Shown here piece after piece: positions 11,057 through 49,381 of a stretch of 64,000 nucleotides of DNA (position 1 is its first letter; every line of letters starts with the position of its first letter). Source of the DNA: Candidatus Omnitrophota bacterium. GTDB lineage: Bacteria; Omnitrophota; Gorgyraeia; 2-01-FULL-45-10. The position numbers and the translations under genes are program-made. The stretch lies in the NCBI GenBank assembly GCA_016935115.1, contig JAFGRN010000002.1, forward strand, positions 3,748-67,747. The letters are read 5' to 3'. A model generated the notes under the pieces. The model was not told the DNA's origin and searched no databases. It saw only the letters and a program-made list of their open reading frames with translations.

Positions 11057-11762
11057 GTGCCTCCGGCATATATACAAATCTGTAGCCATGCAGCTCCAGG
11101 CAGGCACCCTGCATAGCCGGGTAAGCGGTTGCCTTGATACGCCTTGCGATCTCATCTTTTTCCATATCAGGGCTCAACCGGCATAAATCATTGAGTTCTC
11201 TACGGGTGTAAAGCCTGTCGCTCCAGCGTTCTGTGGCAGAACAACAGGATAGCGCGCCTGTAGATACATATTTTTCGAAAACTCGATGGAATTGCCGGGC
11301 CAGGTGATCATAACATTTTTGGGTCAGAGAATAGACCGTATCCCCGGGTGATATCGCAAATCTTGCCACATCAACTATTCTGCCGGAATCTACATTCGCG
11401 GCCATAAGGTGCGCCGTAACCCCATATTTTGTCTCCCCGTTATATATGGCGAAATTGGTACATCCTATACCGCGATATTCAGGCGGCCCAGGATGGAAGT
11501 TGATGGAGAATTCTCTTATACTATCCAAAACCCCGGAGGGAACTATCCACGGCGACAGATACGATATGCATATATCGTACCCATGCCTTTCTACCCCCCG
11601 GGGAAAAGGGTCTCCTACTTTTCCGATAAAGCTGTCCACTATGCCGAAACATTTCCGTAAAATACCAAGCGCCTTTTTAAGCCCAGGTTTATCCTTGGCG
11701 AATAAAACCACCTTTTTGTCCTGCATCCTCTTTGTCACACAACCAGGCCCATTCCCTTTCAT
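11046..11762 (-). CDS. formyltransferase-domain protein (Fmt-like; candidate sugar N-formyltransferase)
   Basis: HPGPPEYRGIGCTNFAIYNGETKYGVTAH… resembles the HPSLLP…G core of N10-formyl-THF formyltransferases, and the gene sits inside the Leg-like module. Confidence 0.6.
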   Translation of the reverse strand: MKGNGPGCVTKRMQDKKVVLFAKDKPGLKKALGILRKCFGIVDSFIGKVGDPFPRGVERHGYDICISYLSPWIVPSGVLDSIREFSINFHPGPPEYRGIGCTNFAIYNGETKYGVTAHLMAANVDSGRIVDVARFAISPGDTVYSLTQKCYDHLARQFHRVFEKYVSTGALSCCSATERWSDRLYTRRELNDLCRLSPDMEKDEIARRIKATAYPAMQGACLELHGYRFVYMPEAHGK

Positions 11763-13813
11763 TTCAATACGCCCTCCGGCCGCACGAGTGGCTTCACCTT
11801 CCTGAAATAGTTATCGATATGAACCAGGGTTGTCGTCTTAAACAACCCGTAGGGATTATTTTCATCGACGTCGTACCTTTCGATCACGGTGCTTATAAGC
11901 TTGGCCTGATCATCCGATATCTCAAATGTTATGGCCACGGGATGTTCCAGCTTATAATCCGAGAGTTTCCCCCGGAATCCCGACTCGATCCATTTCAGTA
12001 TGTCATGCCGCACGGTGATCACTTTTTCTCTCACGATATTTTTGGATATGACGCCGGATAATTTTGCCAGGATATACTCGCGTATATCGGCCATCTCTTC
12101 ACGGATCCGGGCCGCCTCACCCTTTTTCCCGTCGGTTAAGTAACGCCCGGCCATCTCCGAAAAATATGCCGCGTACGTATCAAAATATACCGAGGACGCG
12201 AATATGCTGCACTTCTGCATGAGGTTATCCCCCTGCTCGCGCTCCACCAGCTTCCTGTAATTCTCTTCTTTCGAATAGAACCGGATCAGCTCCTCGGGCG
12301 AGTTCCAGAGCTCCGATCTTGCCTCAGCGGTAAATTTTCCGAAGCACCCGGCGGCCTTAGACCTGTTTTTCCTCAGGTCCTCAAAAACGTAGACCAGCCA
12401 GTCAAATATATCGACTCCATACTGTTTCATGTATTCGATGAGCTCGCGGTATATGCCGTTATTCACGAGAAGCCTTAACAGGCCGTGGAAACTCCGGAAG
12501 TATATGTAATCCTCAAAATTATACGAATTCGTGCCGACGACGACCTTCTCTATCTCGAAGCTGTACTTTCCATTCACCTTCCCGAAGTTTCTCGGTATGA
12601 GACGATAGCGTATGTCATATTTGAACTTTTCGTGCGCTTCTTCCGAATCCAGCTCTATCCCGTCGAGGAGCATAAATGTGAAGGGATCCACGAAATCGAA
12701 ATTATACTTCATCATATCCCGGAGGGTATTCATGTGAGACTGTCGGGTTTCGTGGGGAAGCCCCGTGATGATCTCGGTACTGACATTCTTATTCATACTG
12801 TGCACCAGATTTATGTATTCTACGATCTTATCCCCGCTGAGATTGCGCCTCTTTATGCCCTCCAGAACCTTCTGGTCTGTGGACTGCATAGCAAGCCCGT
12901 ACTTCATGCCCTTGAGCCTGGAGATGCGCTTTATATGCTCACTCGTGGCGGCTTTGCCATAGGGCGCAGTAAAGATCCTGGGATAGTCTAACTCCTGCTG
13001 TAACCTGTACACGACATCGACCGTATCATAATCCCTTTCATACAAGCCAAAATTGGAATCGCATACCATAAGATCATAAATATTATTAGCTATCGCCATT
13101 TTCGATATATACTCCAGTTCTTTTCTTATCCTGTCCATACTGAAATTACCTATGCGCCTGTTCTGTTCATTAGAAGCCCAGCAGTACGCGCATGTATGAG
13201 GACAGCCTCTTGTCGTCTGCATGGACGGAGTAAACCTCTTCTCATTAAAAAACTTGTCCATTAAACCGGTAAGGTGCGGCGACGGAAATATGTCAAGCTC
13301 TTTTGGGCGCGAAATATTCGCGCCAGCTACAAACTCTCCTTTTTTGTTAATACATAATACGCCTTCTATTGGTGTGCTCTTCATTTTTTCAATATCACAA
13401 CCTGTATCGAAATAGGCATTTAGAAGATTAGAAAAAGCTATCTCCCCATCATACGGAATCAAAAAATCGATATGGCTATTTTCCTGGAGAAATAATTTTT
13501 GCCTTTTCTTATCCAGCGGAAAGGCGAGCCCCCCGAAGACTATCATAGAATCGGGATTTTTCTGCTTTACATATTTACTTGCCATCAAAGCGACATTCTT
13601 ATTCCATACATAACATGAACCGGCAAATATATCCGGAGGGTTATTCTCGACCAATTTAAAAAATTCGTCCGCATATTTAAAGATGCCTGCACTACATCTG
13701 GATCCGAAATTAGCCAGCGCATATGCCGCAACATACGCGCTGCCAAGCGGCATTACATCACATGCCAGGATACCATCATTATAAGTAAGATCCGCAAAAT
13801 ATATTTTCCTCAT
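11759..13813 (-). CDS. large (684 aa) cobalamin-binding radical SAM enzyme with extended C-terminal domain
   Basis: B12-binding-like N-terminus, radical SAM motif TRGCPHTCAYC, and a C-terminal extension of about 250 aa. Paralogous to 22168..24195 and 47366..49381 (shared IPSPYLTG…TxRGCPxxCxYC). TAATG overlap with the upstream aminotransferase. Confidence 0.8.
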   Translation of the reverse strand: MRKIYFADLTYNDGILACDVMPLGSAYVAAYALANFGSRCSAGIFKYADEFFKLVENNPPDIFAGSCYVWNKNVALMASKYVKQKNPDSMIVFGGLAFPLDKKRQKLFLQENSHIDFLIPYDGEIAFSNLLNAYFDTGCDIEKMKSTPIEGVLCINKKGEFVAGANISRPKELDIFPSPHLTGLMDKFFNEKRFTPSMQTTRGCPHTCAYCWASNEQNRRIGNFSMDRIRKELEYISKMAIANNIYDLMVCDSNFGLYERDYDTVDVVYRLQQELDYPRIFTAPYGKAATSEHIKRISRLKGMKYGLAMQSTDQKVLEGIKRRNLSGDKIVEYINLVHSMNKNVSTEIITGLPHETRQSHMNTLRDMMKYNFDFVDPFTFMLLDGIELDSEEAHEKFKYDIRYRLIPRNFGKVNGKYSFEIEKVVVGTNSYNFEDYIYFRSFHGLLRLLVNNGIYRELIEYMKQYGVDIFDWLVYVFEDLRKNRSKAAGCFGKFTAEARSELWNSPEELIRFYSKEENYRKLVEREQGDNLMQKCSIFASSVYFDTYAAYFSEMAGRYLTDGKKGEAARIREEMADIREYILAKLSGVISKNIVREKVITVRHDILKWIESGFRGKLSDYKLEHPVAITFEISDDQAKLISTVIERYDVDENNPYGLFKTTTLVHIDNYFRKVKPLVRPEGVLK

Positions 13814-14922
13814 TAGGCAATCAGCTCCTTTAGCTTGGTCGTAACACGATATATATCATCCTTCGTATTCATTACGGAACTCGGAAGGCATAGGCCCCTG
13901 TCGTAAAGACCGCGCGACCGACTGTAATCACCCTTTCCGTACTTCCTATATGGCGGAAACCCGGTCGCAGGCATAAAGATCCGCCTGGTCGGAATATTAT
14001 GTTTCATGAGTTTCTTCTGCAGCCTGGCTATATTAATGCCATCGGCAAAAGATACACAGGTAAACCAATTTGAGCTCCGGCCTCCGTCGCATTCCTCCTG
14101 AAAACGTATAGTCTTGATACCACCGAGCTTCTCGCGGTATATAGAATTGATCCGGTTCTTGCTGGCCAGAAACCGGTTGATTTTTTTCAGCTGCGCGAGG
14201 CCGAGTGCTGCCTCTATATTGGTCATCCTGTAATTGAATCCCATCTCAGGGTGGTAGAGGGAATTTGCCTTATCCTTTGCCTGATTCACGAGAAACTTTA
14301 TATGCCCCGCCTTCCCCGCGTCCCGGCTGACGACCATGCCTCCGCCGCCGGTCGTTATGATCTTGTTGCCGTTAAAACTGAAGCAACCGAAATCGCCGAA
14401 TGTGCCGGTCTGCCTGCCCTTATATGTGGCACCAAGACTCTCCGTGGCATCCTCTATTACGGCCAGCCCGTGCTTCCTGGCTATTCTCATGATAGCGCCC
14501 ATATCGCAAGGATTTCCATACAGATGCACCGGCAGTATCGCCTTCGTTCTCCTGTTTATTAGGCGCTCTATGCGGCAGGGGTCTATATTCCACGTCCGGC
14601 TGTCGATATCCGCAAAGACCGGCCTTGCGCCGACATAAAGGACCGGATTTATTGACGCTATAAAAGTTAGCGCCGGCACTATGACCTCGTCTCCCCGCCC
14701 AATTTTCAATTCATGAAGCGCCATATGCAGCGCCGCCGTCCCGCTCTGAGTGGCGACAGCATTTCTCGACCCGACATAACGCGCGAAGGCTTCTTCAAAA
14801 TCGAAAACAAACCGCCCGGCGCTCGACACGTAGCCGGTATCCACGGCTCTGCTGAGATATCTCTTCTCCGCGGCCCCGATGCTCGGCGCATCGAGATATA
14901 TAGTCTTATATATTGTAGACAT
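13813..14922 (-). CDS. DegT/DnrJ/EryC1/StrS-family PLP aminotransferase (LegC/PseC-like)
   Basis: Aminotransferase fold sequences (…VATQSGTAALHMAL…EVIVPALTFIAS…) typical of sugar 4-aminotransferases. Confidence 0.8.
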   Translation of the reverse strand: MSTIYKTIYLDAPSIGAAEKRYLSRAVDTGYVSSAGRFVFDFEEAFARYVGSRNAVATQSGTAALHMALHELKIGRGDEVIVPALTFIASINPVLYVGARPVFADIDSRTWNIDPCRIERLINRRTKAILPVHLYGNPCDMGAIMRIARKHGLAVIEDATESLGATYKGRQTGTFGDFGCFSFNGNKIITTGGGGMVVSRDAGKAGHIKFLVNQAKDKANSLYHPEMGFNYRMTNIEAALGLAQLKKINRFLASKNRINSIYREKLGGIKTIRFQEECDGGRSSNWFTCVSFADGINIARLQKKLMKHNIPTRRIFMPATGFPPYRKYGKGDYSRSRGLYDRGLCLPSSVMNTKDDIYRVTTKLKELIA

Positions 14923-15904
14923 CGCTCCTGTAAAATTTCATATTGTCCTTACTGCGAAACCACTCTATCGTCTCTTTCAGGCCCTCTTCCAGCGAATACC
15001 CGGGACGCCATCCCGCCAGCTTCCTGATCCTGGCATTGCTTCCCACCAGCCTCTCAACCTCACTCTTTTTCGGCCTGAACCTTTTACCGTCGGATATTAT
15101 CCTGGCTCCGGGGTTGATCATCGAGATCAGCTTCCGGGCAAGATCCTTTATGGATATCTCGCTCCCCGTGGCGATGTTGATCTCCTTCCCTATGGTTTTT
15201 TCCGAACGCGCTATCGCGACAAAGCCATTGGCAACATCCTTCACGAAGACCAGATCCCTCGTCGGATAGACGTTTCCGAGCTCAATATCCCTCCTGCCGG
15301 ACAGGAGCTGTGTTATTATGGTAGGTATCACCGCCCTGGCCGACTGCCTTGGCCCGTACGTATTGAACGGCCTGACGATGGTTACAGGCAGCCCAAAACT
15401 CCTGTAAAAAGATTCTGCGATGGCATCGGCCGCGATCTTCGTAGCGGAGTATGGCGATTGACCCTGCCTGGGATGCTTCTCGTCCATCGGCGCATATCTG
15501 GCTGTGCCGTATGTTTCGGAAGTCGATGTAACCAATACATTCTTCACGCCTATATCCTTTGCCGCCTGGAGGACATTCAGAGTTCCTTTTATGTTGGTGT
15601 CTACATAGCTTTCCGGAGAGTGGTAGCTGAATGGGATGCCGATAAGGGCCGCGAGATGGAATATGATATCCGTACCCCTGGCCGCTACCCTGACGTTGTC
15701 GGAGTCCCTGACATCTCCGAGCGCAATATCGATCTTTTTCATCTTCTCCTTGGGAAATGAATCCAGCCAGCCCAGGCTGTTGAAGGAGTTATAGAGCACG
15801 AACGCCCTGACCTTGCACCCTTCTTCCAGTAACTTCTCGACAAGGTGGCTTCCTATGAAACCCTCGGCCCCCGTAACCAGGACTCTCTTCCCCTTAAGGA
15901 TCAT
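14906..15904 (-). CDS. NAD-dependent epimerase/dehydratase (SDR); candidate nucleotide-sugar 4,6-dehydratase (LegB-like)
   Basis: Gly-rich VLVTGAEGFIGSHL and catalytic YSATK. Positioned directly upstream of the aminotransferase, as in Leg/Pse pathways. Confidence 0.7.
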   Translation of the reverse strand: MILKGKRVLVTGAEGFIGSHLVEKLLEEGCKVRAFVLYNSFNSLGWLDSFPKEKMKKIDIALGDVRDSDNVRVAARGTDIIFHLAALIGIPFSYHSPESYVDTNIKGTLNVLQAAKDIGVKNVLVTSTSETYGTARYAPMDEKHPRQGQSPYSATKIAADAIAESFYRSFGLPVTIVRPFNTYGPRQSARAVIPTIITQLLSGRRDIELGNVYPTRDLVFVKDVANGFVAIARSEKTIGKEINIATGSEISIKDLARKLISMINPGARIISDGKRFRPKKSEVERLVGSNARIRKLAGWRPGYSLEEGLKETIEWFRSKDNMKFYRSDVYNI

Positions 15905-17355
15905 TTTCTACCCCCTACCTTCTCCTGTTTTCTATCGTAGTGTCTGGCTCCGCGAAACTTATATTCGCCCTTGAAGTAAAGGTTATAAAACTGTTCTATC
16001 AGATGATTCGCTTCCTTCATGTCCCCGGCCGTATGCTCATAATGGTCTATTATGAGCTCCTTATTCACATTGAAGAGGCTCTCATAAAATTGTTTTTCCG
16101 GAATATCCGTAAAGTTCACTGTCAACAGGTCTGAATTTTTGAAACGCTCGAAGAAATCTTCCGGGCCGCTCAGCAGTCCGCGCCTTATAGCCTCATAGTA
16201 GAGATCACACCCGGGGTATGGCGTCACGGGCCGTATTGTCCGCAGATGATAGTATGTATTTAGCTCCCGAATGAGGCGCACGTTCGATTTAAGCGACGCC
16301 TCGGTATCGCCTATATTCCCCCACAGGAAGTTCAGTCCTATGCCCACGCCCGTCTTCTTCGCTATCCTGACCGCTTTTATATTCTGCTCCACCGTGGTCC
16401 TCTTACCCATGGCGTTGAGCACATTCTGGTCCGACGACTCAAGCCCGAAATTCAGGAAGACGCACCCGCACTCGGCCAGCGTATGAGCTATCTCCTCATC
16501 GAATATATCCACCCTTGCATCACAGTTAAATGTTATTTTAAGGCCCGCCGATTTCAAGGCGTCCCTGAACTCGAGAAGCCTTCTCCTGGACGATATGAAG
16601 AGCTCGTCCTGCATATTGAAATGCCTTACGCCGTACTGTTGATAAAGGATCTTCATCTCCTCTATCACATTGTTTATGCTCCTTAAACGTATGCCCGATT
16701 CCATGCGGTAACAGAAGTTACAGCGATTGGTGCATCCGCGGCCCGTTATGACCGCCAGGACCTTCCCGCCCTCTTCCATGCCCTTCAATCCGACGCAATC
16801 GGCGTAATCCTTCATGGGAAAGATCTCCCACGCCGGGAATGGAAAACGGTCGAGCTGTCTCGACGGTTCCCGCCTCTTGTTCACTACGACGCCATCCCCC
16901 GACCTGAAGGCTATGCCGTCGACATTCGAAATGTCGTTACCGCCGGCAATCTTGCATTTCAGGAGGTCAACCATCGTCTCCTCCGCATCGCCTATGGCCA
17001 CAATATCCGCGCCCGTTGTCTTTATCATATATTCGGGTATCGATGACGGGCCATGCGCACCCAGCACGAGCCAGGCGCCCCCTTTATACTGATTAATGAC
17101 TTCACACAGGTCCAGGACGGTCTCCTTGAACCTGGCGGCCATAAATCCCACACCTATCAGGTCATAGGATCCGTTTTGCAGATACCGCCTGACCAGTTCT
17201 TCATTGGAATAATGAAATACGTCCTGGCACGCCACCGTAACCTCGGCCCCGGATGCTTTAAGAGCCGAAGCGATATACGCGGGCCCGAGCGGAAAGATAT
17301 TATCTTCCTGATAGACGTCGTGTATGATCAGCAGAACCCTGCCTCCGCGACTCAT
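15901..17355 (-). CDS. cobalamin-binding (class B) radical SAM enzyme, 484 aa
   Basis: B12-binding-like N-terminus, GCTNRCNFCYR, and the C-terminal TIRPVTPYPG motif shared with 3063..4451; ATGA overlap with the upstream gene. Confidence 0.8.
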   Translation of the reverse strand: MSRGGRVLLIIHDVYQEDNIFPLGPAYIASALKASGAEVTVACQDVFHYSNEELVRRYLQNGSYDLIGVGFMAARFKETVLDLCEVINQYKGGAWLVLGAHGPSSIPEYMIKTTGADIVAIGDAEETMVDLLKCKIAGGNDISNVDGIAFRSGDGVVVNKRREPSRQLDRFPFPAWEIFPMKDYADCVGLKGMEEGGKVLAVITGRGCTNRCNFCYRMESGIRLRSINNVIEEMKILYQQYGVRHFNMQDELFISSRRRLLEFRDALKSAGLKITFNCDARVDIFDEEIAHTLAECGCVFLNFGLESSDQNVLNAMGKRTTVEQNIKAVRIAKKTGVGIGLNFLWGNIGDTEASLKSNVRLIRELNTYYHLRTIRPVTPYPGCDLYYEAIRRGLLSGPEDFFERFKNSDLLTVNFTDIPEKQFYESLFNVNKELIIDHYEHTAGDMKEANHLIEQFYNLYFKGEYKFRGARHYDRKQEKVGGRK

Positions 17356-19220
17356 CTTAACACACCCTCTTCTTTTGCTATACAGGACGCGATCCTCGCC
17401 GCCGGTTCTTCCCCCCCGACCGGAAAGACATATTTATCTATCATATCCGGGGAATATTTTGAAGGCAGCGCCCCTTCCTTATATTGTTCAAGGCACCGCC
17501 TTAAGCCGTCCCGGTCGCTGACAAAATAGCATCTCGATTCGAGATCCGCTCTCGTCCTGGCATTCAATATGGAGCAGTCCTTAAAGTAAAGGATTATCGG
17601 GATGGGATACAGAAACGCTATCTGGATCAGCATTGTATCGATATTATCTATGATGAGCATGCCATAATCTCCGAAGATTTCCTCAGCCGGGATCTTCCGC
17701 ACAATACGCGCGTCTTTGCCGTACCGTTTTATCAGCCTATTGAAGTGGGCATTCTGGTAATCATCCTGCCCCGGGTGCACCTTCACATCCAGGCGAAGGG
17801 ATAATTCGGCGGTTACGCCCAGGATATCCTTGTGCACAATATACATTTCACCATCCGGCACGTTATATAGTAGCTTCTTCCATGCGTTGAAATTAAATAC
17901 TGTGGGGCCGAACAGGATGGTCCTGCTCTTCAAGGGCGCGATCTTCGCCTTTTTATAGATATCAAAAAATTTCATGGATCCGCATGTGACACCCCCGGGG
18001 AGACCAAGTTCATCGGCACATATTGCATGCTCGATCTTTGAGTGGTATATCTGTATCTTCCTGATATGTTCATTATGCTCGCAATATTTCTGATGGGGGC
18101 ACTTATGAAACGCCTGAACCGACCCGCCATGCTGAAAATAGAATACCGGGATATTATTCTCCGACGCCACATGGGCATAGAGATCCTCGTATGCCCTGCT
18201 TGAGCCGATGGAATAAAGAAAAGCCGATGGCTTGTATTTCTCTATCATGGCCCTTATGGAAAAATCGAAATGGCTTATACGCTCCACGATGTCACGCCGG
18301 TAAATATCGAAGAGCTCCGCCACATACTGCTCAAATACCGGAAAAAACCTCTTAGAGAATGCCGCCAGCTTGTGCCCGTCCCCCATCGCTTTAACGCCCG
18401 CGCCGGAACTTTTCCCTGCATCAGCCGCCAGTTCCCGAGACACTGAGATGAACTTATGGCCGCGCAGGTGCCTCTTCAAACTGGCCACCTCATAGCCATC
18501 CTGAATCACAAATAATGTTCTGGCGCGACCATTCCGGGCAGAGAAGCCGGCGGACATAATCGAAACTGCCTTTTTCCGGATTTGCTTTAACCTGTAGCAA
18601 AATAATCTCCAGCTGATATATCCCGCGGAAAGCTCTCCCCGCGCGCCGTCGATCCACCTGTATCGTCCTGAAAGACATTGAGACAACATGCGAACTTTAT
18701 TTTCGAGCCCAACGAAACGCGGCATAAAGCCATTCGGCGAGACCAGGATGTTCATTTTGAGCGGCCCGTCCCACTCCTTCCTTCCTACGATAATAAAATC
18801 GCCGTACAACTGTTTCATATTTTCGGATACTTTGGAAACATACAACATATCTATGAAGAGTATCAGAAACCAGTAGATATTAGCCGTATAAGCCCTGGGA
18901 AAGCGCGAGTAATGCCCGTACTGCTTATCGAGATCCGCAAAGAGTCCCTCTGTGGCGGCCTGCAGGGTGCCGGCATCAGAATGAAACTGACTACAGGCAT
19001 AAAAGTCCTCGTTTGTTATGCAGGGAATGCCGTTTTCTTCACAGCTGAACATCGCTCCGGGCGTCATGGCATAAATATCGGCGTCTTTCAGGAGCTCTTC
19101 CCCGAGAAGATCCCGCCTGACATAATCGGTCAATATTACCAGTTTCCTATTACCTCGCGTATCTTTCACCGAATACAGCCTCTCTGCATATCCTGCATTC
19201 CCTGGGTGTCTTATTGTCAT
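17352..19220 (-). CDS. large (622 aa) unassigned transferase-like protein; C-terminal region loosely reminiscent of TagF-type glycerophosphotransferases (uncertain)
   Basis: Long ORF in the array orientation. The C-terminal …KVHPGQ…YGMLIIDNIDTMLIQIAFLYPIPIILYF loosely resembles the KxHP…LITDYSS…PVIFF pattern. The annotated ATG at 19220 overlaps the upstream gene by about 70 nt, so the true start may be an internal GTG (about 19169). Confidence 0.4.
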   Translation of the reverse strand: MTIRHPGNAGYAERLYSVKDTRGNRKLVILTDYVRRDLLGEELLKDADIYAMTPGAMFSCEENGIPCITNEDFYACSQFHSDAGTLQAATEGLFADLDKQYGHYSRFPRAYTANIYWFLILFIDMLYVSKVSENMKQLYGDFIIVGRKEWDGPLKMNILVSPNGFMPRFVGLENKVRMLSQCLSGRYRWIDGARGELSAGYISWRLFCYRLKQIRKKAVSIMSAGFSARNGRARTLFVIQDGYEVASLKRHLRGHKFISVSRELAADAGKSSGAGVKAMGDGHKLAAFSKRFFPVFEQYVAELFDIYRRDIVERISHFDFSIRAMIEKYKPSAFLYSIGSSRAYEDLYAHVASENNIPVFYFQHGGSVQAFHKCPHQKYCEHNEHIRKIQIYHSKIEHAICADELGLPGGVTCGSMKFFDIYKKAKIAPLKSRTILFGPTVFNFNAWKKLLYNVPDGEMYIVHKDILGVTAELSLRLDVKVHPGQDDYQNAHFNRLIKRYGKDARIVRKIPAEEIFGDYGMLIIDNIDTMLIQIAFLYPIPIILYFKDCSILNARTRADLESRCYFVSDRDGLRRCLEQYKEGALPSKYSPDMIDKYVFPVGGEEPAARIASCIAKEEGVLR

Positions 19221-32472: not shown

Positions 32473-32489
32473 TTTCTCCTCACAAGATT

Positions 32490-43034: not shown

Positions 43035-43050
43035 GATATCCTCGCCGGAG

Positions 43051-43614
43051 TCAAACGGTCACCGCGCCTTCTTTTGCCAGATAATCCTTAAATGACGGCG
43101 CGGCCAGGTCCTTATCCGAAATGATAAGCGGCCCATTGATCGGCCATGAAATATTCAGGTCCGGATCCTTCCAGTGTATCGTCCGGGAACTCTCCCGGTG
43201 GTACGGCGTATCCATCTTATACAGAAGGGAGCAATCGTCCGTCAAGGTATACATTCCCATGGCCATCCCCTTGGGCGCGTACAGAAGTTCCGGGGCCTCT
43301 ATCGAAAGCTCGACGCTATCCCATAGGCCGAACGTCGGCGAACCCGCGCGCATATCTACAAGAACCATAAAGGCCCTGCCCTGCGCCACCCGAACAAGTT
43401 TCGTTTCAGTATAAGGTGAGCATTGAAAATGCAGCCCCCTCAAAGTACCTCTCTTCTTTGAAAAAGAGTGAGTTTCCTGGATCCACCGCGTCACAAGGCC
43501 ATATCCGGCAAGAATATCCCGGTCATAGGTGCGGGCCAGGAACCCCCTGTCGTCTCGGTGCGGGGCGAGCGTGATCCGGAACGCGCCATCTATCTTTAAA
43601 GGAATAAGTTCCAT
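43051..43614 (-). CDS. cupin sugar-nucleotide 3,5-epimerase (RmlC-like)
   Basis: 187 aa; …RDDRGFLARTY…GTLRGLHFQ… matches the RmlC fold motifs. Confidence 0.7.
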   Translation of the reverse strand: MELIPLKIDGAFRITLAPHRDDRGFLARTYDRDILAGYGLVTRWIQETHSFSKKRGTLRGLHFQCSPYTETKLVRVAQGRAFMVLVDMRAGSPTFGLWDSVELSIEAPELLYAPKGMAMGMYTLTDDCSLLYKMDTPYHRESSRTIHWKDPDLNISWPINGPLIISDKDLAAPSFKDYLAKEGAVTV

Positions 43615-43618
43615 AGCT

Positions 43619-44884
43619 TCATAGCTCCCGCGCCATCAACTGCGGAGCCGAAATTACCCGCGGCGCTTTCGGAAACGGCACTATATATTGCCCCCTGAAT
43701 CCGCGCCTGGCGCATTCGTCCATGATCTCCCCGGCAAAATTCCACGCCAGTATAAAGATCACATCCGGCCTGAATGCCAGGCCTTCTTCAAACGACACAA
43801 TCGGCAGATCGCCGGCAGGAGTCATGCATCCCTGCTTGAGAGGATTATTGTCGATGATGGCTCTGAGATAGTTGGGCCCGATGCCGCAAAAATTGATAAA
43901 CGTGGCACTGCGCGCCGAAGCGCCAAAACCCACGATCACCTTCCCGCTCAGGGACTTGAGCAGATCCAGCATCTTTTCGCGATGGTCTATGGCATAGCCG
44001 GCAAATTTTTCCCAGGCCGCGAACTTATTGATCCCGGACCTTTTTTCAGCGCATAAGAGCTCTCCGTATTCCGGTTGCTGCGGACGTTTTGTCTTGGAAA
44101 AGTACAACACGATCGACCCGCCGCTAATGGGACTCTCATCTACGGCAAAGGGGTACAGCCCGTAACGTTCAAGAAGGTTTCCGAGGGAATGCGCCGTAAA
44201 ATAGCACAGGTGCTCATGATAGATGGAATCGTAATGAAGATCCCTCGCTATGACGGCTCCGCTGTGAAATTCGATCACGCCGGTACCGTCATCGGAGAGA
44301 GCGCTGGCGATACCTTCGGTCACGCCGTGAAGGTCGCTCACATGCGGAATGACATTCCGCGCTATTATCGTTTTCGGCCTGCCGTACCGGGCGACCGCCG
44401 TTTTCGCCGAAGAGGCATCCCAATACGAACAGTCCGTGGGAACTCCGTTGCGAACGGCCATCTCGGCTATATTTCTCGCCGGCTCTATTCCGAGGACTTT
44501 CATCCCGCGGGCCGCGAACTGCCTGAGGACCGTGCCGTCGTTCGAGGCTATCTCAAAGACCATATCCCCGCGGCGCAGGCCGGAGCGATCGATGACCCGG
44601 CCTGAAAATATGCCCGCATATTCCTGCGCGCATTTTGAAGTACCGGTGACCCACACGTACCGATCGAAAAGGACCTCTTTACGCAGTGTTTCTCTGAGCT
44701 GGAAAAGAGAGCATTCCGGGCAGAAGGCCGTAGAGAGAGGAAATTTTTCAATTCTGCCGGCGGCGGGGCGCACCAACGCGTTGGCAAGCGGCTGTTCACC
44801 CAGATTAAGGACATCTTTCAGCCCCTTATATCCGCAAATCCGGCAGGCTGTAATCGTTTCAAATATTTTTGACATTGGAGCCAT
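43619..44884 (-). CDS. sugar C-methyltransferase (TylC3/NovU-like family)
   Basis: N-terminal Zn-ribbon CRICGYK…CPEC, a class I MTase core and a C-terminal dinucleotide-binding-like domain; 421 aa is typical of the family. Confidence 0.6.
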   Translation of the reverse strand: MAPMSKIFETITACRICGYKGLKDVLNLGEQPLANALVRPAAGRIEKFPLSTAFCPECSLFQLRETLRKEVLFDRYVWVTGTSKCAQEYAGIFSGRVIDRSGLRRGDMVFEIASNDGTVLRQFAARGMKVLGIEPARNIAEMAVRNGVPTDCSYWDASSAKTAVARYGRPKTIIARNVIPHVSDLHGVTEGIASALSDDGTGVIEFHSGAVIARDLHYDSIYHEHLCYFTAHSLGNLLERYGLYPFAVDESPISGGSIVLYFSKTKRPQQPEYGELLCAEKRSGINKFAAWEKFAGYAIDHREKMLDLLKSLSGKVIVGFGASARSATFINFCGIGPNYLRAIIDNNPLKQGCMTPAGDLPIVSFEEGLAFRPDVIFILAWNFAGEIMDECARRGFRGQYIVPFPKAPRVISAPQLMAREL

Positions 44885-44891
44885 AATTGTC

Positions 44892-45926
44892 CTATCGGAA
44901 CAGGCGAAGGTCCCCTGAAACCTTTTTATTGTCCTGCAGATACCTGATCTGCTTTAGCCTGGCGCAGGTACGCCCGCGAAAATGATCCTCATTGAACCCC
45001 GTCTTCCTGAAAAACCCGATGAGTTCTTTCCCTCCGCTATCGAGGTCCCATTCGGGCCTGAAATAGTCTTTAAGCACGGAGAGGATCTTTTTAAAACTGA
45101 CCTGATATGTGCGGGAATCATTTCCGTGCTCGCCGGTGAAGACTAGGGAGCTTCCGGAAACCGAACGCTGCGCAGCTTCGGCGAGTTCACGCACCGTAAA
45201 GTTGCCTCCCGGGATACCGACATTGAACGCCTGGCCGGAGACGAGTGACAGCGGCGCTTCGAGCCCGGCTATATAGGCGCTCGAGACATCACGCACATGG
45301 ACCACCGGCCGCCATGGCGACCCGTCGCTCTTTATCTCGATCCTGCCCGTAGCGTAAGCGCATCCGACCAGATTATTGTAAACGATATCGCACCTGAGGC
45401 GGGGGCTCGCGCCGAATACCGTCGACGGGCGGAAGGAGACGACATGAAAATTCTTATCGGCCAATTTCTTAAGGGCGCATTCCGCTTCCCATTTTGTGCG
45501 GGCATAGGCCGTCAGCGGATGCTTCTTGCTGTTGTCCTCATCGAGCTCGCAATCGACGGCCGAAACTCCGTACATGCTCTGCGATGAGGAATAGATAAAC
45601 CTTTTCACTCCCGCGCTCTTCGCGGCCAGCGCGGCCTTCACGGTCCCGCCCAGGTTGATCTCTTCCGTCAATCCTGGGGCAAACTCGCCAAGCGGATCGT
45701 TGGATAGCGCGGCCAGATGAATCACCGCGTCGACCCCCTCCATATCCTCCGTCGTGATGTCGCGGATATCTTTCCTTATCTGCCGTATGGCCGGATTGTA
45801 CGGATGCAGAAGGCAATCCGCATAGTACCCGATATCATACCCGACCACTTCATATTTCCTGTCGAGCAGCATATCGACCAGGACGCTGCCGATATACCCC
45901 TGATTGCCCGTAACCAGTACTTTCAT
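44892..45926 (-). CDS. NAD-dependent nucleotide-sugar dehydratase/epimerase (SDR)
   Basis: MKVLVTGNQGYIGSVL and YARTK catalytic motif. Confidence 0.65.
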   Translation of the reverse strand: MKVLVTGNQGYIGSVLVDMLLDRKYEVVGYDIGYYADCLLHPYNPAIRQIRKDIRDITTEDMEGVDAVIHLAALSNDPLGEFAPGLTEEINLGGTVKAALAAKSAGVKRFIYSSSQSMYGVSAVDCELDEDNSKKHPLTAYARTKWEAECALKKLADKNFHVVSFRPSTVFGASPRLRCDIVYNNLVGCAYATGRIEIKSDGSPWRPVVHVRDVSSAYIAGLEAPLSLVSGQAFNVGIPGGNFTVRELAEAAQRSVSGSSLVFTGEHGNDSRTYQVSFKKILSVLKDYFRPEWDLDSGGKELIGFFRKTGFNEDHFRGRTCARLKQIRYLQDNKKVSGDLRLFR

Positions 45927-45927
45927 A

Positions 45928-46476
45928 TCACGCCTTTACTTTCTCCAGCTCATACGCAAGGCTATCGACTACCGACGACAGCCAGGATTGATGGACGGCT
46001 TCTATGATATTGTACTCGTCACTGTCGGTCCACAAATTGAGGTCTCCGAGCCGCCTCAATGGATTATCCGGCCTGAACCCCGAGAGAGTGATCACCTTAA
46101 GGCCCATCGATCTGGCCTGCCGGGCGGCATTCACGATGTTGGGCGACTTACCGCTGCTGCTGATCAGGATCACCAGGTCCCCGGCGCAGGCATAGGCTTT
46201 CAGCGCCTCTTCGACCCAATGCTCATAACCGTAGTCGTTGGAAAAACATGTGATCAGGTCCGCGTCGTTAAAACTGATCGCGCGGACACCCGCCGTCTTT
46301 GTAAGGTCCACCGATACATGGCTCGCGATCGCAGCGCTGGCGCCATTGCCTGCGATCATGACCTTGCCGCCGAGTGATGACGCCTCTCGCACAAGCGCCG
46401 CGCCCTTCTCTATGGCGTCGTCATCGACATCGAGAATTGCCCGGCATATCCTCTGCAGATAATCTCTGATCTTCAT
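45928..46476 (-). CDS. gmhA: SIS-domain sedoheptulose-7-phosphate isomerase (GmhA-like)
   Basis: SIS motifs (…GGKVMIAGNGASAAIASH…DLVILISSSGKSPN…). The ATG at 46476 (MKIRD…) forms an ATGA overlap with the upstream stop and is preceded by GGGAGG; the track's longer N-terminus is rejected. Confidence 0.7.
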   Translation of the reverse strand: MKIRDYLQRICRAILDVDDDAIEKGAALVREASSLGGKVMIAGNGASAAIASHVSVDLTKTAGVRAISFNDADLITCFSNDYGYEHWVEEALKAYACAGDLVILISSSGKSPNIVNAARQARSMGLKVITLSGFRPDNPLRRLGDLNLWTDSDEYNIIEAVHQSWLSSVVDSLAYELEKVKA

Positions 46477-47231
46477 TCTCCGCCCTCCCGTCTTAAGCAC
46501 GCGAATCCCTTCTCCCGGGACGCCTTTTCGAACCGGATAAGATCCCCGGGGGATGTGATGAAGTAATATTGTTCGTCAGAAACGAACGCTCCCAGCCGCC
46601 CGTCTGCGGCCAGGCGCGCCAGTATCTTCTCCTCAAAAGAGATATTGCCCTCCTCCGCCCTGTCGAGAACCTTCCTGTCTACCAGGAAAAATCCGATATC
46701 GATCCCGTTCAACCCTTCCATGCGCCGGTTCTTATCGTATGCCACGACCTTTCCGCGGTGATCCACGGCAACATTATTCCCGGAGCCATACTCGCCCGTA
46801 CCCTGTTTATTGCTGAACACCGTTGTCGTCACGGGAACCCCGATCCGCTCATAATTGAAGATCATCTTGTCCAGCGGAATCGTCCAATAATTGTCGCCAT
46901 AGAGTAACAGAAACCGGTCTTCGAGCTTTTCGTAAGCGTCCAGAAGCCGCCTGCCGGTCAGGTCATCTTCTGTCCCGACCGAATAGTCTATCCGCAGCCC
47001 GAATTCTCTGCCGTCACCATAGTAGCCCATGATCGCGTCTGCGCGATAACCTACCAGAAAGAGAATCCTACGGATGCCGGAGTTGACGAGCGACCGCATC
47101 AGATAGTCCGTAAACGGCCTCCCATTCACCGGCACCATCGGCTTCGGAATGCCATCCGTGATGGGCCTGAGGCGTTCACCGCGGCCACCCGCGAATATGA
47201 CTGCCTGCTGGATTGTCATTTGTTTATGCAT
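46473..47231 (-). CDS. sugar-1-phosphate nucleotidyltransferase (HddC/GMP-like)
   Basis: AVIFAGGRGERLRPITDGIPKPMVPV nucleotidyltransferase signature; first gene after a promoter/operator. Confidence 0.65.
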   Translation of the reverse strand: MHKQMTIQQAVIFAGGRGERLRPITDGIPKPMVPVNGRPFTDYLMRSLVNSGIRRILFLVGYRADAIMGYYGDGREFGLRIDYSVGTEDDLTGRRLLDAYEKLEDRFLLLYGDNYWTIPLDKMIFNYERIGVPVTTTVFSNKQGTGEYGSGNNVAVDHRGKVVAYDKNRRMEGLNGIDIGFFLVDRKVLDRAEEGNISFEEKILARLAADGRLGAFVSDEQYYFITSPGDLIRFEKASREKGFACLRREGGE

Positions 47232-47259
47232 ATTGTTCAGATGGCTCTATTTATGAGTG

Positions 47260-47307: not shown

Positions 47308-47365
47308 TATAATTGTATGTTTAGTGGTAAGGCGGGTAGATCGTGAGGAAACTGAAGAATAAGGA

Positions 47366-49381
47366 TTAAATAGCCACCCATTTCGGCCAAAAGTCTCTGA
47401 TACTGCCATCCCTGTACAACATCTGGAGCGAAAGTATGGCATCCTTATTAGCGTACATAAATTCTTTTGCCTTTTTCTTTATGTCACGCTCAAAAATAAC
47501 CCTGTATGAAGACACCCTATAAAAATCTTTCAATAGCAGTGAAGTGTTGAGATTTGCCAGCCATACAGGTATATCGTAATTGAGGCATATTTCTCTTTCG
47601 CTCAAGAGGTTTCCACCGGCAAAGACGGCCTTTACATCCCTTGTCAATAAATACTGTTTCATGTCCGCGAGAATCAGATCTACCCCCTCTTTCATATCAA
47701 TCGCGTTCAATAGCTTTTTGGCCTCGGACAATGCCAGATCAAGCACCGACCTGTAGCTATGGAATAGGACGAGTTGTTTATACTTTCTCAGCAGATTATC
47801 GCCATATTTACCTTCGCAAAGCGCCTTCCAGTTTTCGGGTTCGTCAAAAAATTCCAGGAGCGCCTCTCTCGTAGGAAATAACTCCGCTTTTGTCTCCCGG
47901 ACGAATTCCTGATAGTAAATGTTTATGTCGGAAAATTCGGACAATCTGCGATGAATATCGAAGACCCAGTCCGCCATATCGATGCCATTTTCAATCAAAA
48001 GCCTTTTGAGAGGAATCAGTTCTATTGAAGAGCAGAAAACGGATATTGTAAAGCATAGGCGGCGAAGCTCGATATAATCATCGAATGACATCGTATTGGT
48101 CCCGATGATAACTTCCTCTGTATCAAGTATCTTCTTCCCGTCGATGACACTGAACTGCCGCGGCACCACCCTGTGGCGGATCACATAGCCGTACTTGCGG
48201 GCATTCTCCTCAGACGAAAGCGGCGTCCCCTTAAGCGCCATCAGAGTGTATATGCAAATGTTTTGCACGCCCGATCTTATGACCTTTCTTATTGTTTCGA
48301 GAAAGCTATCCTTGGTCTCCCCCGGAAGGCACAGGATCAATTCGGTTTCGGATGCTTCGCCGGTTTTCCTCAAAATCTCATGCTGAAACGAGATGAAATC
48401 CTCGAACGGGATATTTGTCCTGTTAATATTTTTTAATACTTCCGGCGTCAGTGTCTGTAACGCGATACCCGGATTAAATCGGATGATCGAGGACATCTCC
48501 ACCAGCTTCTTCGGATCCTTTCCGGAATTGAAGTTCATATTCCTGGGCCAGTCGTATTTTTTCTGTGTATCGCGGATTATCCCGGCGATCACGAAGTCCT
48601 CTTTGAAGAGGCTCATGTTAGTATTGGCCAGGTATAACATCACTTCATGTTTCCCGGAGAAGCGCCTGCCGAGATATTCCATATCCCGCCTGAAAATATC
48701 CGGGGAGAGAAAGAGCATGCGCGAGTAATATCTGTCGCTCGTATGGCAAAAGGCGCATGTGAAGGGACAGCCGCGATGGGTCTGTAAAAAAGGATGGGAT
48801 CCGCTGTCGAGAAATTCATCAAAAATCCCATCGGCATAAAGAGATCCCAGGGCATCCAGGGAATTAAGGCGCGGAGGCGGCTCCGGTGAGTCCACTATGT
48901 CGCCGCGGGAAGCATCGTAAGAATACGTACCGGGCCCCGGTTTCCTGCGGATATCGCCGGGCTTCTCCCCTTTCAAAAGGCGCTTCACGGTCTCGGTGAA
49001 TGGAATCTCGCCATCATATGAAACACAAAGATCAATAAAGGCATATTTTTTGAAAAAATTTCTGCGGCCGGATTTAAGCAGGTCGAGATTAGGCCCCCCG
49101 GCTATGACAAGACACCCCGGATCGGCGTCTTTAATCCGCGCGGCTACATGCAGGTTAAGCTCACTGTTCCATGAGTATTGGGCTATACCCAGCACATCGG
49201 GACGCCAGGACTTAAAAGCCTTCAGGGCCTTATCAGTATCTTTGAAAAGCCTGGTATTTACGCTATTCCCCACTGCTTTGTCCAGATATCGCGCGATCGC
49301 CCCCAACCCCAACGGCACTGTGTTGGTGTGTATGCCCCGCGTCGTATGGTTTAAGTCCAACAAAGCTATTTTCATTCCCAT
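47366..49381 (-). CDS. large (671 aa) cobalamin-binding radical SAM enzyme
   Basis: THRGCPFTCAFC and a B12-binding-like N-terminus; third member of the 675-aa paralogue group. Confidence 0.8.
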   Translation of the reverse strand: MGMKIALLDLNHTTRGIHTNTVPLGLGAIARYLDKAVGNSVNTRLFKDTDKALKAFKSWRPDVLGIAQYSWNSELNLHVAARIKDADPGCLVIAGGPNLDLLKSGRRNFFKKYAFIDLCVSYDGEIPFTETVKRLLKGEKPGDIRRKPGPGTYSYDASRGDIVDSPEPPPRLNSLDALGSLYADGIFDEFLDSGSHPFLQTHRGCPFTCAFCHTSDRYYSRMLFLSPDIFRRDMEYLGRRFSGKHEVMLYLANTNMSLFKEDFVIAGIIRDTQKKYDWPRNMNFNSGKDPKKLVEMSSIIRFNPGIALQTLTPEVLKNINRTNIPFEDFISFQHEILRKTGEASETELILCLPGETKDSFLETIRKVIRSGVQNICIYTLMALKGTPLSSEENARKYGYVIRHRVVPRQFSVIDGKKILDTEEVIIGTNTMSFDDYIELRRLCFTISVFCSSIELIPLKRLLIENGIDMADWVFDIHRRLSEFSDINIYYQEFVRETKAELFPTREALLEFFDEPENWKALCEGKYGDNLLRKYKQLVLFHSYRSVLDLALSEAKKLLNAIDMKEGVDLILADMKQYLLTRDVKAVFAGGNLLSEREICLNYDIPVWLANLNTSLLLKDFYRVSSYRVIFERDIKKKAKEFMYANKDAILSLQMLYRDGSIRDFWPKWVAI

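Follow-up and report, generated by a model that had tools for sequence, protein, structure and literature searches.

Three anciently diverged TokK/CysS-like radical SAM proteins of an Omnitrophota glycan island as putative C-methylases of nonulosonate and heptose intermediates

The stretch of DNA analysed here (the window, 64,000 nucleotides taken at its full length) contains 12 radical SAM genes, three of which, designated A, B and C, are the subject of this work (table 1); the original prediction, which had drawn attention to these three, missed the other nine. A, B and C are intact open reading frames at the positions first proposed for them, and homology searches found B to be identical to NCBI protein MBN2452651.1. 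A is surrounded by genes of a legionaminic-type module, B is found within a pseudaminic-type module that includes an amidotransferase trio, and C is next to a heptose-type nucleotide-sugar module.

Table 1. Genes and features of the window discussed in the text, in order of position.
Feature	Position	Strand	Remarks
Second amidotransferase trio	4507..7077	(-)	WbuX 5965-7077, HisH 5319-5942, HisF 4507-5325
Genes downstream of A	7074..11762	(-)	formyltransferase-like, NeuB_NnaB-type synthase, NeuC-type 2-epimerase, CBS-nucleotidyltransferase, CMP-transferase
Formyltransferase-like gene	11046..11762	(-)	motif NFHPGPPEYRG...DSG; downstream of A
Paralogue A	11759..13813	(-)	684 aa; NCBI MBN2452643.1; TokK/CysS-type cobalamin-dependent radical SAM; CxxxCxxC 13181-13204; conserved Trp70 13604-13606
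LegC-like aminotransferase	13813..14922	(-)	406 bits, cutoff 420; upstream of A
LegB 4,6-dehydratase	14906..15904	(-)	484 bits, cutoff 475; upstream of A
Block downstream of the trio around B	15901..20211	(-)	kept in metagenomic loci L002 and L004; SPASM radical SAM 19150-20211; 622-aa protein without Pfam match 17352-19220; 484-aa B12 radical SAM 15901-17355
WbuX-family N-acetyl sugar amidotransferase (trio around B)	20208..21377	(-)	TIGR03573 320 bits, cutoff 203
HisF/WbuZ-like subunit (trio around B)	21379..22167	(-)	best match WbuZ, 260 bits, cutoff 299.7
Paralogue B	22168..24195	(-)	675 aa, GTG start; NCBI MBN2452651.1; cobalamin domain approx. aa 1-190, with Trp75 (23971-23973); radical SAM core approx. 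aa 195-400, CxxxCxxC 23548-23571; TokK-type C-terminal domain aa 401-675 (22171-22995)
HisH-like glutaminase subunit (trio around B)	24209..24832	(-)	TIGR01855 220 bits, cutoff 105; directly upstream of B
PseI-type nonulosonate synthase	24835..25881	(-)	440 bits, cutoff 340; upstream of HisH
Rest of pseudaminic-type module	27119..32984	(-)	MarR-like regulator, PseB, CMP-transferase, RmlD-like reductase, PseG-like protein, carbamoyltransferase
Heptose-type nucleotide-sugar module	41122..47231	(-)	downstream of C; nucleotidyltransferase, SIS/GmhA-like, epimerase, sugar C-methyltransferase, 3,5-epimerase, reductase, GHMP/HddA-like kinase; all matches under NCBIfam cutoffs
Paralogue C	47366..49381	(-)	671 aa; three-domain architecture as in A and B; CxxxCxxC 48746-48769; Trp71 49169-49171; PSPYL motif degenerate
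511-aa protein, no Pfam match	49381..50916	(-)	its end overlaps the C start by one base

The original prediction held that the three are paralogous B12-binding radical SAM proteins, and the pairwise alignments that it had proposed as a check gave significant similarity throughout, with 24-27% identity and E values of 1e-50 to 1e-75 (BLASTP: A/B, 24% identity over 641 aa, E 6e-58; A/C, 26% over 620 aa, E 4e-75; B/C, 27% over 454 aa, E 9e-52). All three exceed the gathering score of the Pfam Radical_SAM family (PF04055; 46.3, 62.7 and 44.7 bits for A, B and C versus 29.5), the [4Fe-4S] cluster motifs being CPHTCAYC, CPYRCSYC and CPFTCAFC in the three proteins. Scores with the Pfam B12-binding family are slightly under the gathering score in all of them (26-30 bits versus 32.1); the presence of a cobalamin-binding Rossmann domain is borne out by fold comparison of the models of B and C, on which the cobalamin domains of TokK, CysS and TsrM superpose. 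CxxxCxxC is present in all copies. As to the motifs initially listed as shared, TxRGCPxxCxYC is valid for A and B, but C has FC at its end, and IPSPYLTG is exact only in B, being FPSPHLTG in A and degenerate (ALGSLYAD) in C. The C-terminal extension (approx. 270 aa) was found to be common to all copies, as expected: low complexity was ruled out, and comparison of clade profiles yielded hhalign probabilities of 99.9% for A/C (250 columns), 98.8% for A/B (219 columns) and 96.8% for B/C (104 columns). Its suggested identity with DUF4070 was not upheld, no match to DUF4070 or to any other Pfam family being obtained in the C-terminal parts with either the full proteins (E<=0.01) or the isolated parts (E<=10); the domain is of the TokK/CysS type. 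A, B and C are genuinely homologous and have a three-domain architecture in common.

The further proposal of a lineage-specific expansion had to be abandoned. The presence of three copies of one architecture within one cluster could be taken to indicate that a single gene recently gave rise to three partly redundant proteins, but this is now hardly credible, given the low mutual identity of the copies and the many much closer orthologues that each of them has in other phyla and archaea. For each copy, 143-291 proteins of other genomes or metagenomes outscore either sister copy, orthologues with 50-74% identity being found in Desulfobacterales, Phycisphaerae, Scalindua, Promethearchaeota, Nanoarchaeota and Falkowbacteria, and in a rough neighbour-joining tree A, B and C fall into three separate clades. 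The family profile retrieved 4,972 clusters (50% identity) at E<=1e-30, a count that spans bacteria and archaea and takes in the TokK-type antibiotic enzymes. Among the matches listed in a family-alignment scan of GTDB genome contigs there was no B-clade orthologue, the relatives found (22-39% identity) including actinomycete natural-product homologues, and a metagenome scan with the B-clade alignment returned only three B orthologues (L091-L093), on contigs too short for neighbours.

No solved structures other than TokK and CysS gave matches at E<1e-5 with A, B and C alike. The profile built from 52 family sequences found TokK at E 4e-101 and CysS at E 2e-86, with matches extending into the C-terminal domain, and the AlphaFold2 models of B and C (pLDDT, 94.3 and 93.9, respectively; pTM, 0.92) could be aligned by Foldseek with TokK over 657-726 columns (TM 0.73-0.77) and with CysS at TM 0.68-0.77, the TokK and CysS alignments covering 653-726 columns with the C-terminal domain included. 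The next best fold match, TsrM, was confined to the two N-terminal domains (TM approx. 0.44). In A, the C-terminal part has homology to the same domain of B and C (hhalign, 98.8-99.9%). This large domain has been described as distinct to TokK (bioRxiv 10.1101/2021.07.10.451909), and the corresponding domain of CysS is part of the substrate cavity (PMC12846815); in A, B and C it would be the counterpart of the substrate channel of the two enzymes. Furthermore, TokK Trp76 and CysS Trp75 occupy the lower axial face of cobalamin, such a Trp below the cobalt being reported as conserved only in TokK, ThnK and CysS (bioRxiv 10.1101/2021.07.10.451909; PMC12846815). TokK Trp76 aligns with Trp75 of B, at a position that is invariant in the 52 family sequences and likewise in a second alignment, and this Trp is within a Y-x-W-N motif in A, B and C. 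The best NCBIfam match of all three is the KedN5 family of methylcobalamin-dependent radical SAM C-methyltransferases (NF033712; 178, 161 and 122 bits), but membership of this subfamily was rejected, the scores being far under the cutoff of 700 with approximately 390 of the 624 model positions matched; weak NCBIfam matches to related P-methylases were also obtained.

It may be questioned whether the reaction is a methylation, as cobalamin and SAM could serve, without methyl transfer, in sugar rearrangement, ring contraction, cyclization, epimerization or dehydration. Examples of cobalamin-dependent radical SAM enzymes that are not methylases are OxsB and BchE. Full-length identity to TokK and CysS is only approximately 20%, and most cobalamin-dependent radical SAM enzymes are uncharacterized, several not being methylases (bioRxiv 10.1101/2021.07.10.451909). 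However, TokK, CysS and the KedN5 family, to which A, B and C are nearest in sequence, profile and full-length fold, are without exception methylases, the matches to OxsB and AprD4 are much poorer, and the Trp under the corrin, a feature peculiar to TokK, ThnK and CysS, does not vary, which makes chemistry other than methylation quite improbable. We regard A, B and C as anciently diverged members of a large uncharacterized branch, associated with glycan clusters, of the TokK/ThnK/CysS-type class B methylases.

The position of B is exactly that originally described, wedged between the HisH-like and HisF-like genes with WbuX next, and all members of the amidotransferase trio predicted from profile scores are present and adjacent. 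Thirteen nt separate the HisH stop from the GTG start of B, and the HisF ATG immediately follows the B stop codon; profile scores and gene order agree with the embedding of B in an acetamidino-type amidotransferase operon. In the surrounding module, PseB scored 494 bits (cutoff 408) and the PseG-like protein 142 bits (cutoff 154); neither PseC nor PseH was found in the module of B, an RmlD-like reductase and a carbamoyltransferase being in their place. The HisH-rSAM-HisF-WbuX arrangement, for which a search of other genomes had been suggested, recurs with overlapping genes in two other metagenomic loci, L002 (71% identity) and L004 (66% identity), in which the surrounding genes differ, and HisH-rSAM-HisF is missing in two of the five B-clade loci with flanking sequence (L005 and L006). 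Distant relatives (29-31% identity) are found immediately after WbuX-HisH-HisF (L097) or near HisH-HisF (L096), and a Desulfobacterales orthologue of A is near DegT-HisF-HisH.

From the B orthologues of L005 and L006, which have no HisH/HisF neighbours, and from the second amidotransferase trio of the window, which is contiguous and has no radical SAM insert, it might be argued that B came to lie between HisH and HisF by an accident of insertion, and that it acts on some other carbon or on another sugar of the glycan. This is judged to be unlikely. The insertion, with its coupled or overlapping genes, is kept at 66-71% identity even though the flanking content changes, and independent cases of a place beside HisH/HisF/WbuX genes, in other gene orders, are seen among distant members, at 29-31% identity or from the A clade. 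The three loci with the complete arrangement could be related Omnitrophota, with a synteny that is in part inherited rather than selected. N-methylation of the amidine by B was also considered, and it is unlikely since it does not need radical chemistry and genes for class I methyltransferases of the ordinary kind are close by (25885-27117; in L002, immediately behind WbuX).

A is found, as first reported, between the Leg-pathway aminotransferase and the formyltransferase-like gene, and its location inside a legionaminic-type module is borne out by LegB, NeuB_NnaB (468 bits, cutoff 400) and NeuC (461 bits, cutoff 236), which score above the NCBIfam cutoffs, with LegC slightly under. The hexapeptide acetyltransferase is missing from this module, A and the formyltransferase-like gene being in its place. 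Methylation of the N-formyl carbon by A to yield an acetyl group was considered and rejected, adjacency to the formyltransferase-like gene being all that speaks for it. The two proteins of approximately 630 aa without Pfam match that follow the trios (17352-19220 and 1125-3059) have no mutual similarity.

A place for C in an amino-sugar or nonulosonate module was rejected on the grounds that its neighbours are of the heptose type (SIS/GmhA-like, GHMP/HddA-like and nucleotidyltransferase), with scores of 82 bits for the GmhA-like (cutoff 209), 143.5 for the HddA-like (cutoff 600) and 88.5 for the HddC-like protein (cutoff 300). C is separated from this module by a 135-bp gap with promoter-like hexamers, and the link consists of adjacency and of one syntenic orthologue, that of Scalindua, which adjoins HldE-like and GmhA-like genes and has neighbours with the same three activities. 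In the two largest intergenic gaps, scanning for promoters and terminators yielded consensus-level promoter-like sites only, to be taken as a caveat and not as evidence. In L004, the C orthologue precedes a MarR-PseB module instead.

Similar contexts are found in other members of the family. In L007-9, relatives lie between CMP-transferase, formyltransferase and NeuB genes and overlap the CMP-transferase genes; in L010, a relative belongs to a NeuB cluster adjoining flagellin genes; in P0142, a CMP-transferase and a radical SAM protein of this type are fused, in a cluster with HisH, HisF and NeuB. When the collection scans, including the GTDB contig scan, were restricted to loci of 5 kb or more, homologues of the sugar genes of the window were present, among the matches listed, in 13 of the 22 loci whose radical SAM protein reaches 200 bits or more with A, B or C and in none of the 20 in which it scores below 100 bits; the other nine of the close-relative loci had, again among the matches listed, no sugar gene detectable with the proteins of the window.

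Taken as a whole, the sequence data make it fairly probable that A, B and C carry out radical C-methylation of intermediates of nonulosonate or heptose pathways. The original prediction that each paralogue modifies a nonulosonate is retained in part: a tailoring role is plausible in view of the recurrent synteny and of the CMP-transferase fusion, but C adjoins heptose-type genes. From the gene context, the three copies would each serve a sugar module of their own within a glycan island that exceeds 60 kb in this Omnitrophota metagenome-assembled genome. A would act in a legionaminic-type pathway, in the usual slot of the N-acetyltransferase and beside the formyltransferase-like gene; B in a pseudaminic-type pathway, translationally coupled within the HisH/HisF/WbuX operon by which acetamidino groups would be formed from N-acetyl groups; and C probably in an NDP-heptose-type pathway. 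By analogy with TokK and CysS, enzymes that carry out successive methylations of an sp3 carbon, a first SAM would methylate cob(I)alamin, and a second would give the 5'-deoxyadenosyl radical for hydrogen abstraction at an unactivated carbon of the substrate, with the substrate radical then taking the methyl group from methylcobalamin, possibly repeatedly. Sugar intermediates, nucleotide-linked or free, are the most likely substrates and, for B, the target is most likely the acetamido/acetamidino side chain or a carbon of that nonulosonate. GenK, GenD1 and Fom3 catalyse cobalamin-dependent radical C-methylation of aminoglycoside sugars or, for Fom3, of a CMP-linked substrate, so that sugar- or nucleotide-linked substrates are feasible.

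The substrates of both solved relatives are pantetheine-linked rather than sugars, and are bound in part by the same C-terminal domain (bioRxiv 10.1101/2021.07.10.451909; PMC12846815). Thus, A, B and C could instead methylate pantetheine-, CoA- or carrier-bound acyl precursors, with the branched acyl group later moved to amino sugars, a proposal also favoured by the B orthologue of L005, which is near genes for an FkbH_N protein, a 79-aa open reading frame and acyltransferases, and by the GNAT and polysaccharide-deacetylase genes at the far end of the window, as in L005. We attach only a small probability to it. Genes for a carrier protein, a CoA ligase or a phosphopantetheinyl transferase were not detected near A, B and C, where the tight packing of genes leaves no room for an overlooked one, and no carrier-protein or CoA-ligase domain was found among the approximately 56 genes scanned; B is coupled to an amidotransferase working on sugar-bound N-acetyl groups; and the fusion to a CMP-nonulosonate synthetase domain, together with the overlaps with CMP-transferase genes, points to sugar-level substrates.

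A bolder and rather doubtful extension is that a large TokK/CysS-like clade is devoted to the radical C-alkylation of prokaryotic surface sugars, and that B-type enzymes with HisH/HisF/WbuX convert the acetamido/acetamidino group of a pseudaminic-type sugar, possibly stepwise, to higher alkyl-amidino or acyl substituents, such as propion- or isobutyr-amidino groups, which are not known to have been described on sugars. A natural nonulosonate that is C-methylated on an acyl or amidino group is not known to us, and the literature searched, mostly outside subscription journals, held no link of radical SAM/cobalamin enzymes to nonulosonic, pseudaminic or legionaminic acids, heptose polysaccharides or Omnitrophota.

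Enzymes of the TokK/CysS type, valued for the alkylation of unactivated carbons, have to date been described from a few antibiotic pathways, and the present results point to a much larger sister group tied to nonulosonic acid and heptose biosynthesis, of which the 64-kb island with its 12 radical SAM genes is an unusually rich case. They suggest a methylation of unusual surface sugars that is chemistry not yet described for these sugars. Nonulosonic acids and heptoses are found on flagella, S-layers, capsules and lipopolysaccharides, and affect phage and immune recognition. If the proposal is correct, many uncultured bacteria and archaea would have, in their surface glycans, C-alkylated sugars not anticipated by current glycan catalogues and mass-based searches, and the substrate range of radical alkylation would be wider. 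The HisH-rSAM-HisF-WbuX operon, with four genes and a known substrate class, would then offer a defined and testable entry.

Among known systems, likeness to the KedN5 family spans the two N-terminal domains. GenK, GenD1 and Fom3, which are enzymes of antibiotic pathways, are shorter and have no C-terminal domain of the TokK type. TokK/ThnK (carbapenem C6 alkylation; PDB 7KDX, 7KDY) resemble A, B and C in the full-length three-domain architecture, and TokK also in the CxxxCxxC core, the PSPYL-type motif and the Trp under cobalamin, but TokK acts on a pantetheinylated carbapenam and is encoded in actinomycete antibiotic clusters rather than in nonulosonate/heptose clusters of an Omnitrophota genome, and neither its Arg280 nor its Trp215 is conserved in A, B and C. 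CysS, the iterative methylase of the cystobactamid alkoxy group (PDB 9N1B, 9N1C, 9N1D), is a full-length fold match with an equivalent Trp75, but its substrate is a pantetheinylated aminobenzoate, and the substrate-contact position of its gating Trp271 and of TokK Arg280 is mostly Lys in the B clade, mostly Asn in the C clade and variable in the A clade. To our knowledge, the WbuX/WbuY/WbuZ-type (PseA-like) acetamidino systems operate without a radical SAM component, and none was found for them in the literature searched. Two such trios, with WbuX and HisH above cutoffs and with HisF-like proteins that have WbuZ as their best match, are present in the window, and in the one around B, unlike the known systems, a TokK-like enzyme is encoded between HisH and HisF, as it is in L002 and L004.

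Three open reading frames of 684, 675 and 671 residues (A, B and C, respectively) were found where the original prediction had placed three paralogous radical SAM (rSAM) proteins, and the pairwise alignment proposed there as a check demonstrated their homology (BLASTP, 24-27% identity, E values from 9e-52 to 4e-75). In each of them Pfam detects a Radical_SAM domain above threshold and a B12-binding match that is sub-threshold. The predicted common motifs were found in part: CxxxCxxC is intact in all three proteins, and PSPYL is present in A and B but degenerate in C. The C-terminal extension is real, with approximately 270 residues forming a domain common to A, B and C (profile-profile comparison of the clade alignments, probability 96.8-99.9%); the check for DUF4070 was negative, as no Pfam family, DUF4070 included, matches there.

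When all PDB sequences were searched, the sole matches of each of A, B and C below an E value of 1e-5 were TokK and CysS, two structurally characterized cobalamin-dependent rSAM methylases, and with a 52-sequence family profile (TokK, E 4e-101; CysS, 2e-86) the match extends into the C-terminal domain. AlphaFold2 models obtained without templates (pLDDT 94.3 for B and 93.9 for C; pTM 0.92 for both) superpose with TokK and CysS over essentially the full length (TM 0.68-0.77), whereas TsrM, OxsB, MgmA and AprD4 match the N-terminal domains only, or much more poorly. [quoted passage not shown] The lower face of the cobalt is shielded by Trp76 in TokK and Trp75 in CysS (bioRxiv 10.1101/2021.07.10.451909; PMC12846815), and among the known methylases this Trp is conserved only in TokK, ThnK and CysS (bioRxiv 10.1101/2021.07.10.451909). 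Trp75 of B aligns with it, and the residue is invariant throughout the family alignments. Thus, by taking into account fold, profile and Trp residue, A, B and C are almost certainly, in structural terms, cobalamin-dependent rSAM methylases of the TokK/ThnK/CysS type. The residue at the substrate-contact position (Arg280 of TokK, Trp271 of CysS) varies by clade, which fits differing substrates.

The proposal of a lineage-specific expansion did not survive the search for relatives, which revealed close orthologues of A and C in other phyla. In a rough NJ tree A, B and C fall in three separate clades, with the actinomycete homologues outside them, and when 348 family proteins were pooled, the sister copies ranked no higher than 144th-292nd for one another. 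Orthologues of A at 50-65% identity include proteins of Desulfobacterales and of other Omnitrophota MAGs, with further relatives at 34-37% that include a protein of a Phycisphaerae MAG; for C, more than 120 relatives reach 50% identity or above, among them Scalindua, Promethearchaeota, Nanoarchaeota and Falkowbacteria; the B clade is rarer, with 11 proteins (45-71% identity) from metagenome and environmental assemblies. Among 1.84 billion representatives, the family profile detects 4,972 clusters (50% identity) with E<=1e-30. The top 150 of these mostly have lengths of about 660-740 residues and reach 573 bits or more, as compared with 342 bits for TokK with the same profile in the PDB search. 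TokK-like rSAM genes also occur two or three in tandem in six loci (L020, L023, L024, L026, L037 and L082) of Clostridia, Oscillospiraceae, Microthrixaceae and Gammaproteobacteria, in L023 adjoining HddA/HddC-like genes, and double-length fused proteins of about 1,270 residues exist (P0350, P0360).

The neighbours of B are, as had been predicted, the HisH-like, HisF/WbuZ-like and WbuX genes of an acetamidino-forming amidotransferase trio, with the HisH stop codon 13 nt ahead of the B start and the HisF ATG directly after the B stop. The HisH-rSAM-HisF-WbuX arrangement was found again, with overlapping or coupled genes, in two loci containing B orthologues, L002 (71% identity) and L004 (66%), where it follows a PseI-type synthase and precedes an SPASM rSAM, a protein of about 600 residues without assigned function and a B12 rSAM; it is kept despite variation of the upstream pathway genes between loci. 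The loci of two other B orthologues, L005 (63%) and L006 (55%), are without it. Independent associations are seen among more distant relatives, the order being WbuX-HisH-HisF-rSAM in L097 and, in L096, HisH-HisF followed by two genes and the rSAM. In the window, the pseudaminic-type module contains PseB, PseI, a PseG-like protein and a CMP-transferase, with no PseC aminotransferase and no PseH acetyltransferase among its genes; in their place are an RmlD-like reductase and a carbamoyltransferase, the same set being found in L004 (1415-7839). This suggests as product a nonulosonate with a C7 hydroxyl, which may be O-carbamoylated.

A is flanked, as originally described, by a LegC-like aminotransferase gene on one side and a formyltransferase-like gene on the other. 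Its module also includes LegB, NeuB_NnaB-type, NeuC-type, CBS-nucleotidyltransferase and CMP-transferase genes, after which comes a WbuX-HisH-HisF trio with all its components. A hexapeptide N-acetyltransferase would be expected after LegC but is absent from this module, its place being taken by A and the formyltransferase-like gene, in which the NxH...D motif is kept; L004, in contrast, has a PglD-type acetyltransferase at this position. The Desulfobacterales orthologue of A is found a few genes past DegT-HisF-HisH and a 406-residue protein. Links of this rSAM family to CMP-nonulosonate synthesis are recurrent. In P0142 a CMP-transferase domain is fused to a TokK-like rSAM, and the cluster also contains HisH, NeuB and two HisF genes; in L007-9 the gene of the relative overlaps that of a CMP-transferase and is followed by formyltransferase and NeuB genes; and in L010 the relative belongs to a NeuB cluster that adjoins genes for flagellin, FliD and FliS. 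Formyltransferase-family genes also recur beside members of the rSAM family in nonulosonate clusters (table).

C is translationally coupled to the 511-residue upstream protein. It is followed by a 135-bp gap and then by genes for a nucleotidyltransferase, an SIS/GmhA-like protein, epimerases, a sugar C-methyltransferase and a GHMP/HddA-like kinase, none of which reaches its family cutoff. The Scalindua orthologue (55% identity) adjoins HldE-like and GmhA-like genes, and several looser relatives are likewise next to HddA/GmhA-like genes. The heptose assignment of C is tentative, because in L004 an orthologue of C immediately precedes the MarR-PseB module.

Loci spanning 5 kb or more, taken from the matches listed in two collection scans, were compared with the proteins of the window. 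Where the rSAM scored 200 bits or higher against any of A, B and C, sugar-pathway homologues were found in 13 of 22 loci; they were found in 11/30 at 100-199 bits, in none of the 20 below 100 bits, and in 1/17 with other B12 rSAM types; these counts are lower bounds, because only homologues of window proteins are recognisable.

The window itself is densely packed, with about 56 genes that all lie on the minus strand and nearly all have sugar-nucleotide or glycan functions. The NCBI proteins MBN2452643.1 and MBN2452651.1, encoded on a 126.9-kb contig belonging to a Candidatus Omnitrophica/Omnitrophota MAG, are identical to A and B, respectively. A collection of 15 billion proteins includes A and B of this contig but no exact copy of C (best match, 74% identical); in the deposited MAG, C may have been left uncalled or may carry a different annotation.

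Coordinates of features in the window and in related loci (L numbers)
Feature	Position	Strand	Remark
rSAM gene 1	3063-4451	-	462 residues, shorter B12 rSAM
rSAM gene 2 (A)	11759-13813	-
rSAM gene 3	15901-17355	-	484 residues, shorter B12 rSAM
rSAM gene 4	19150-20211	-
rSAM gene 5 (B)	22168-24195	-
rSAM gene 6	33109-34629	-
rSAM gene 7	34496-35983	-
rSAM gene 8	37127-38092	-
rSAM gene 9	38028-39269	-
rSAM gene 10 (C)	47366-49381	-
rSAM gene 11	50934-52505	-
rSAM gene 12	53298-55898	-	866 residues
Large ORF	1125-3059	-	644 residues
Large ORF	17352-19220	-	622 residues
Large ORF	49381-50916	-	511 residues
Large ORF	35980-37176	-	398 residues
ORF cut by window start	1-1116	-
Formyltransferase-family gene	11046-11762	-	window
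Formyltransferase-family gene	10295-11062		L007
Formyltransferase-family gene	4402-4908		L010
Formyltransferase-family gene	820-3252		L005
Pseudaminic-type module	24835-32472	-
Gap	47231-47366
Gap	32984-33109
Overlapping ORFs	10049-11155/11046-11762	-
Overlapping ORFs	33109-34629/34496-35983	-
Overlapping ORFs	37127-38092/38028-39269	-

Twelve radical SAM genes are found in this single-strand 64-kb glycan cluster, nine with B12-binding domains, two with SPASM domains and one MiaB-like; only three of the 12 have the TokK-type C-terminal domain. The two shorter B12 rSAM proteins are paralogues (38% identical, E 1e-118), each encoded downstream of one WbuX/HisH/HisF trio, the longer in a position kept in L002 and L004; the product of the last gene is a fusion of a B12 rSAM enzyme and a DUF2334 domain. 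The 644-, 622- and 511-residue proteins gave no match in a Pfam search to E<=1, and the 398-residue one a sub-threshold Glycos_transf_2 match only; the 622-residue protein is kept in L002 and L004 and shows no similarity to the 644-residue one on comparison. The ORF cut by the window start resembles, by its sequence, an ABC exporter that has a membrane domain and the first part of an ATPase domain, and it may encode the flippase or exporter of the glycan. Both gaps contain minus-strand sigma-70-like hexamer pairs (e.g. TTGACA-17-TAATAT at 47307-47279), consensus matches only, and thus possible internal promoters that may split the island into operons. Three pairs of mechanically called ORFs overlap by 65-134 bp, so that the first start codon is probably placed too far upstream; NeuB is 335 residues long in the Logan gene call and 368 in the window ORF call.

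Beside the fold, cofactor-binding motifs, homology, synteny and fusion observed for this family, methylase chemistry is probable for A, B and C by analogy with TokK and CysS: SAM would methylate cobalamin to methylcobalamin, the 5'-deoxyadenosyl radical would abstract a hydrogen, and a methyl radical would then be transferred, possibly more than once. Gene context makes a substrate in a glycan pathway likely, and nonulosonate or heptose pathway intermediates would be the candidates. That B acts on an amidino or acyl group, one of the targets first suggested, is rather doubtful; the most economical guess would be the acetamido/acetamidino side chain, but a different carbon of the sugar is equally possible. 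The original observation is real and its interpretation right in part. Full-text literature, its coverage excluding most subscription journals, gave no link between radical SAM or cobalamin enzymes and nonulosonic, pseudaminic or legionaminic acid biosynthesis, and an earlier description elsewhere is possible; in a recent survey of Omnitrophota genomes, radical SAM domains come up in another context only. In NCBIfam, A, B and C all match best to the KedN5 family (methylcobalamin-dependent C-methyltransferases), with scores far below the cutoff and coverage of the two N-terminal domains only. The three proteins are outside the curated KedN5 subfamily. They represent a known kind of enzyme in a new variant that is associated with glycans.
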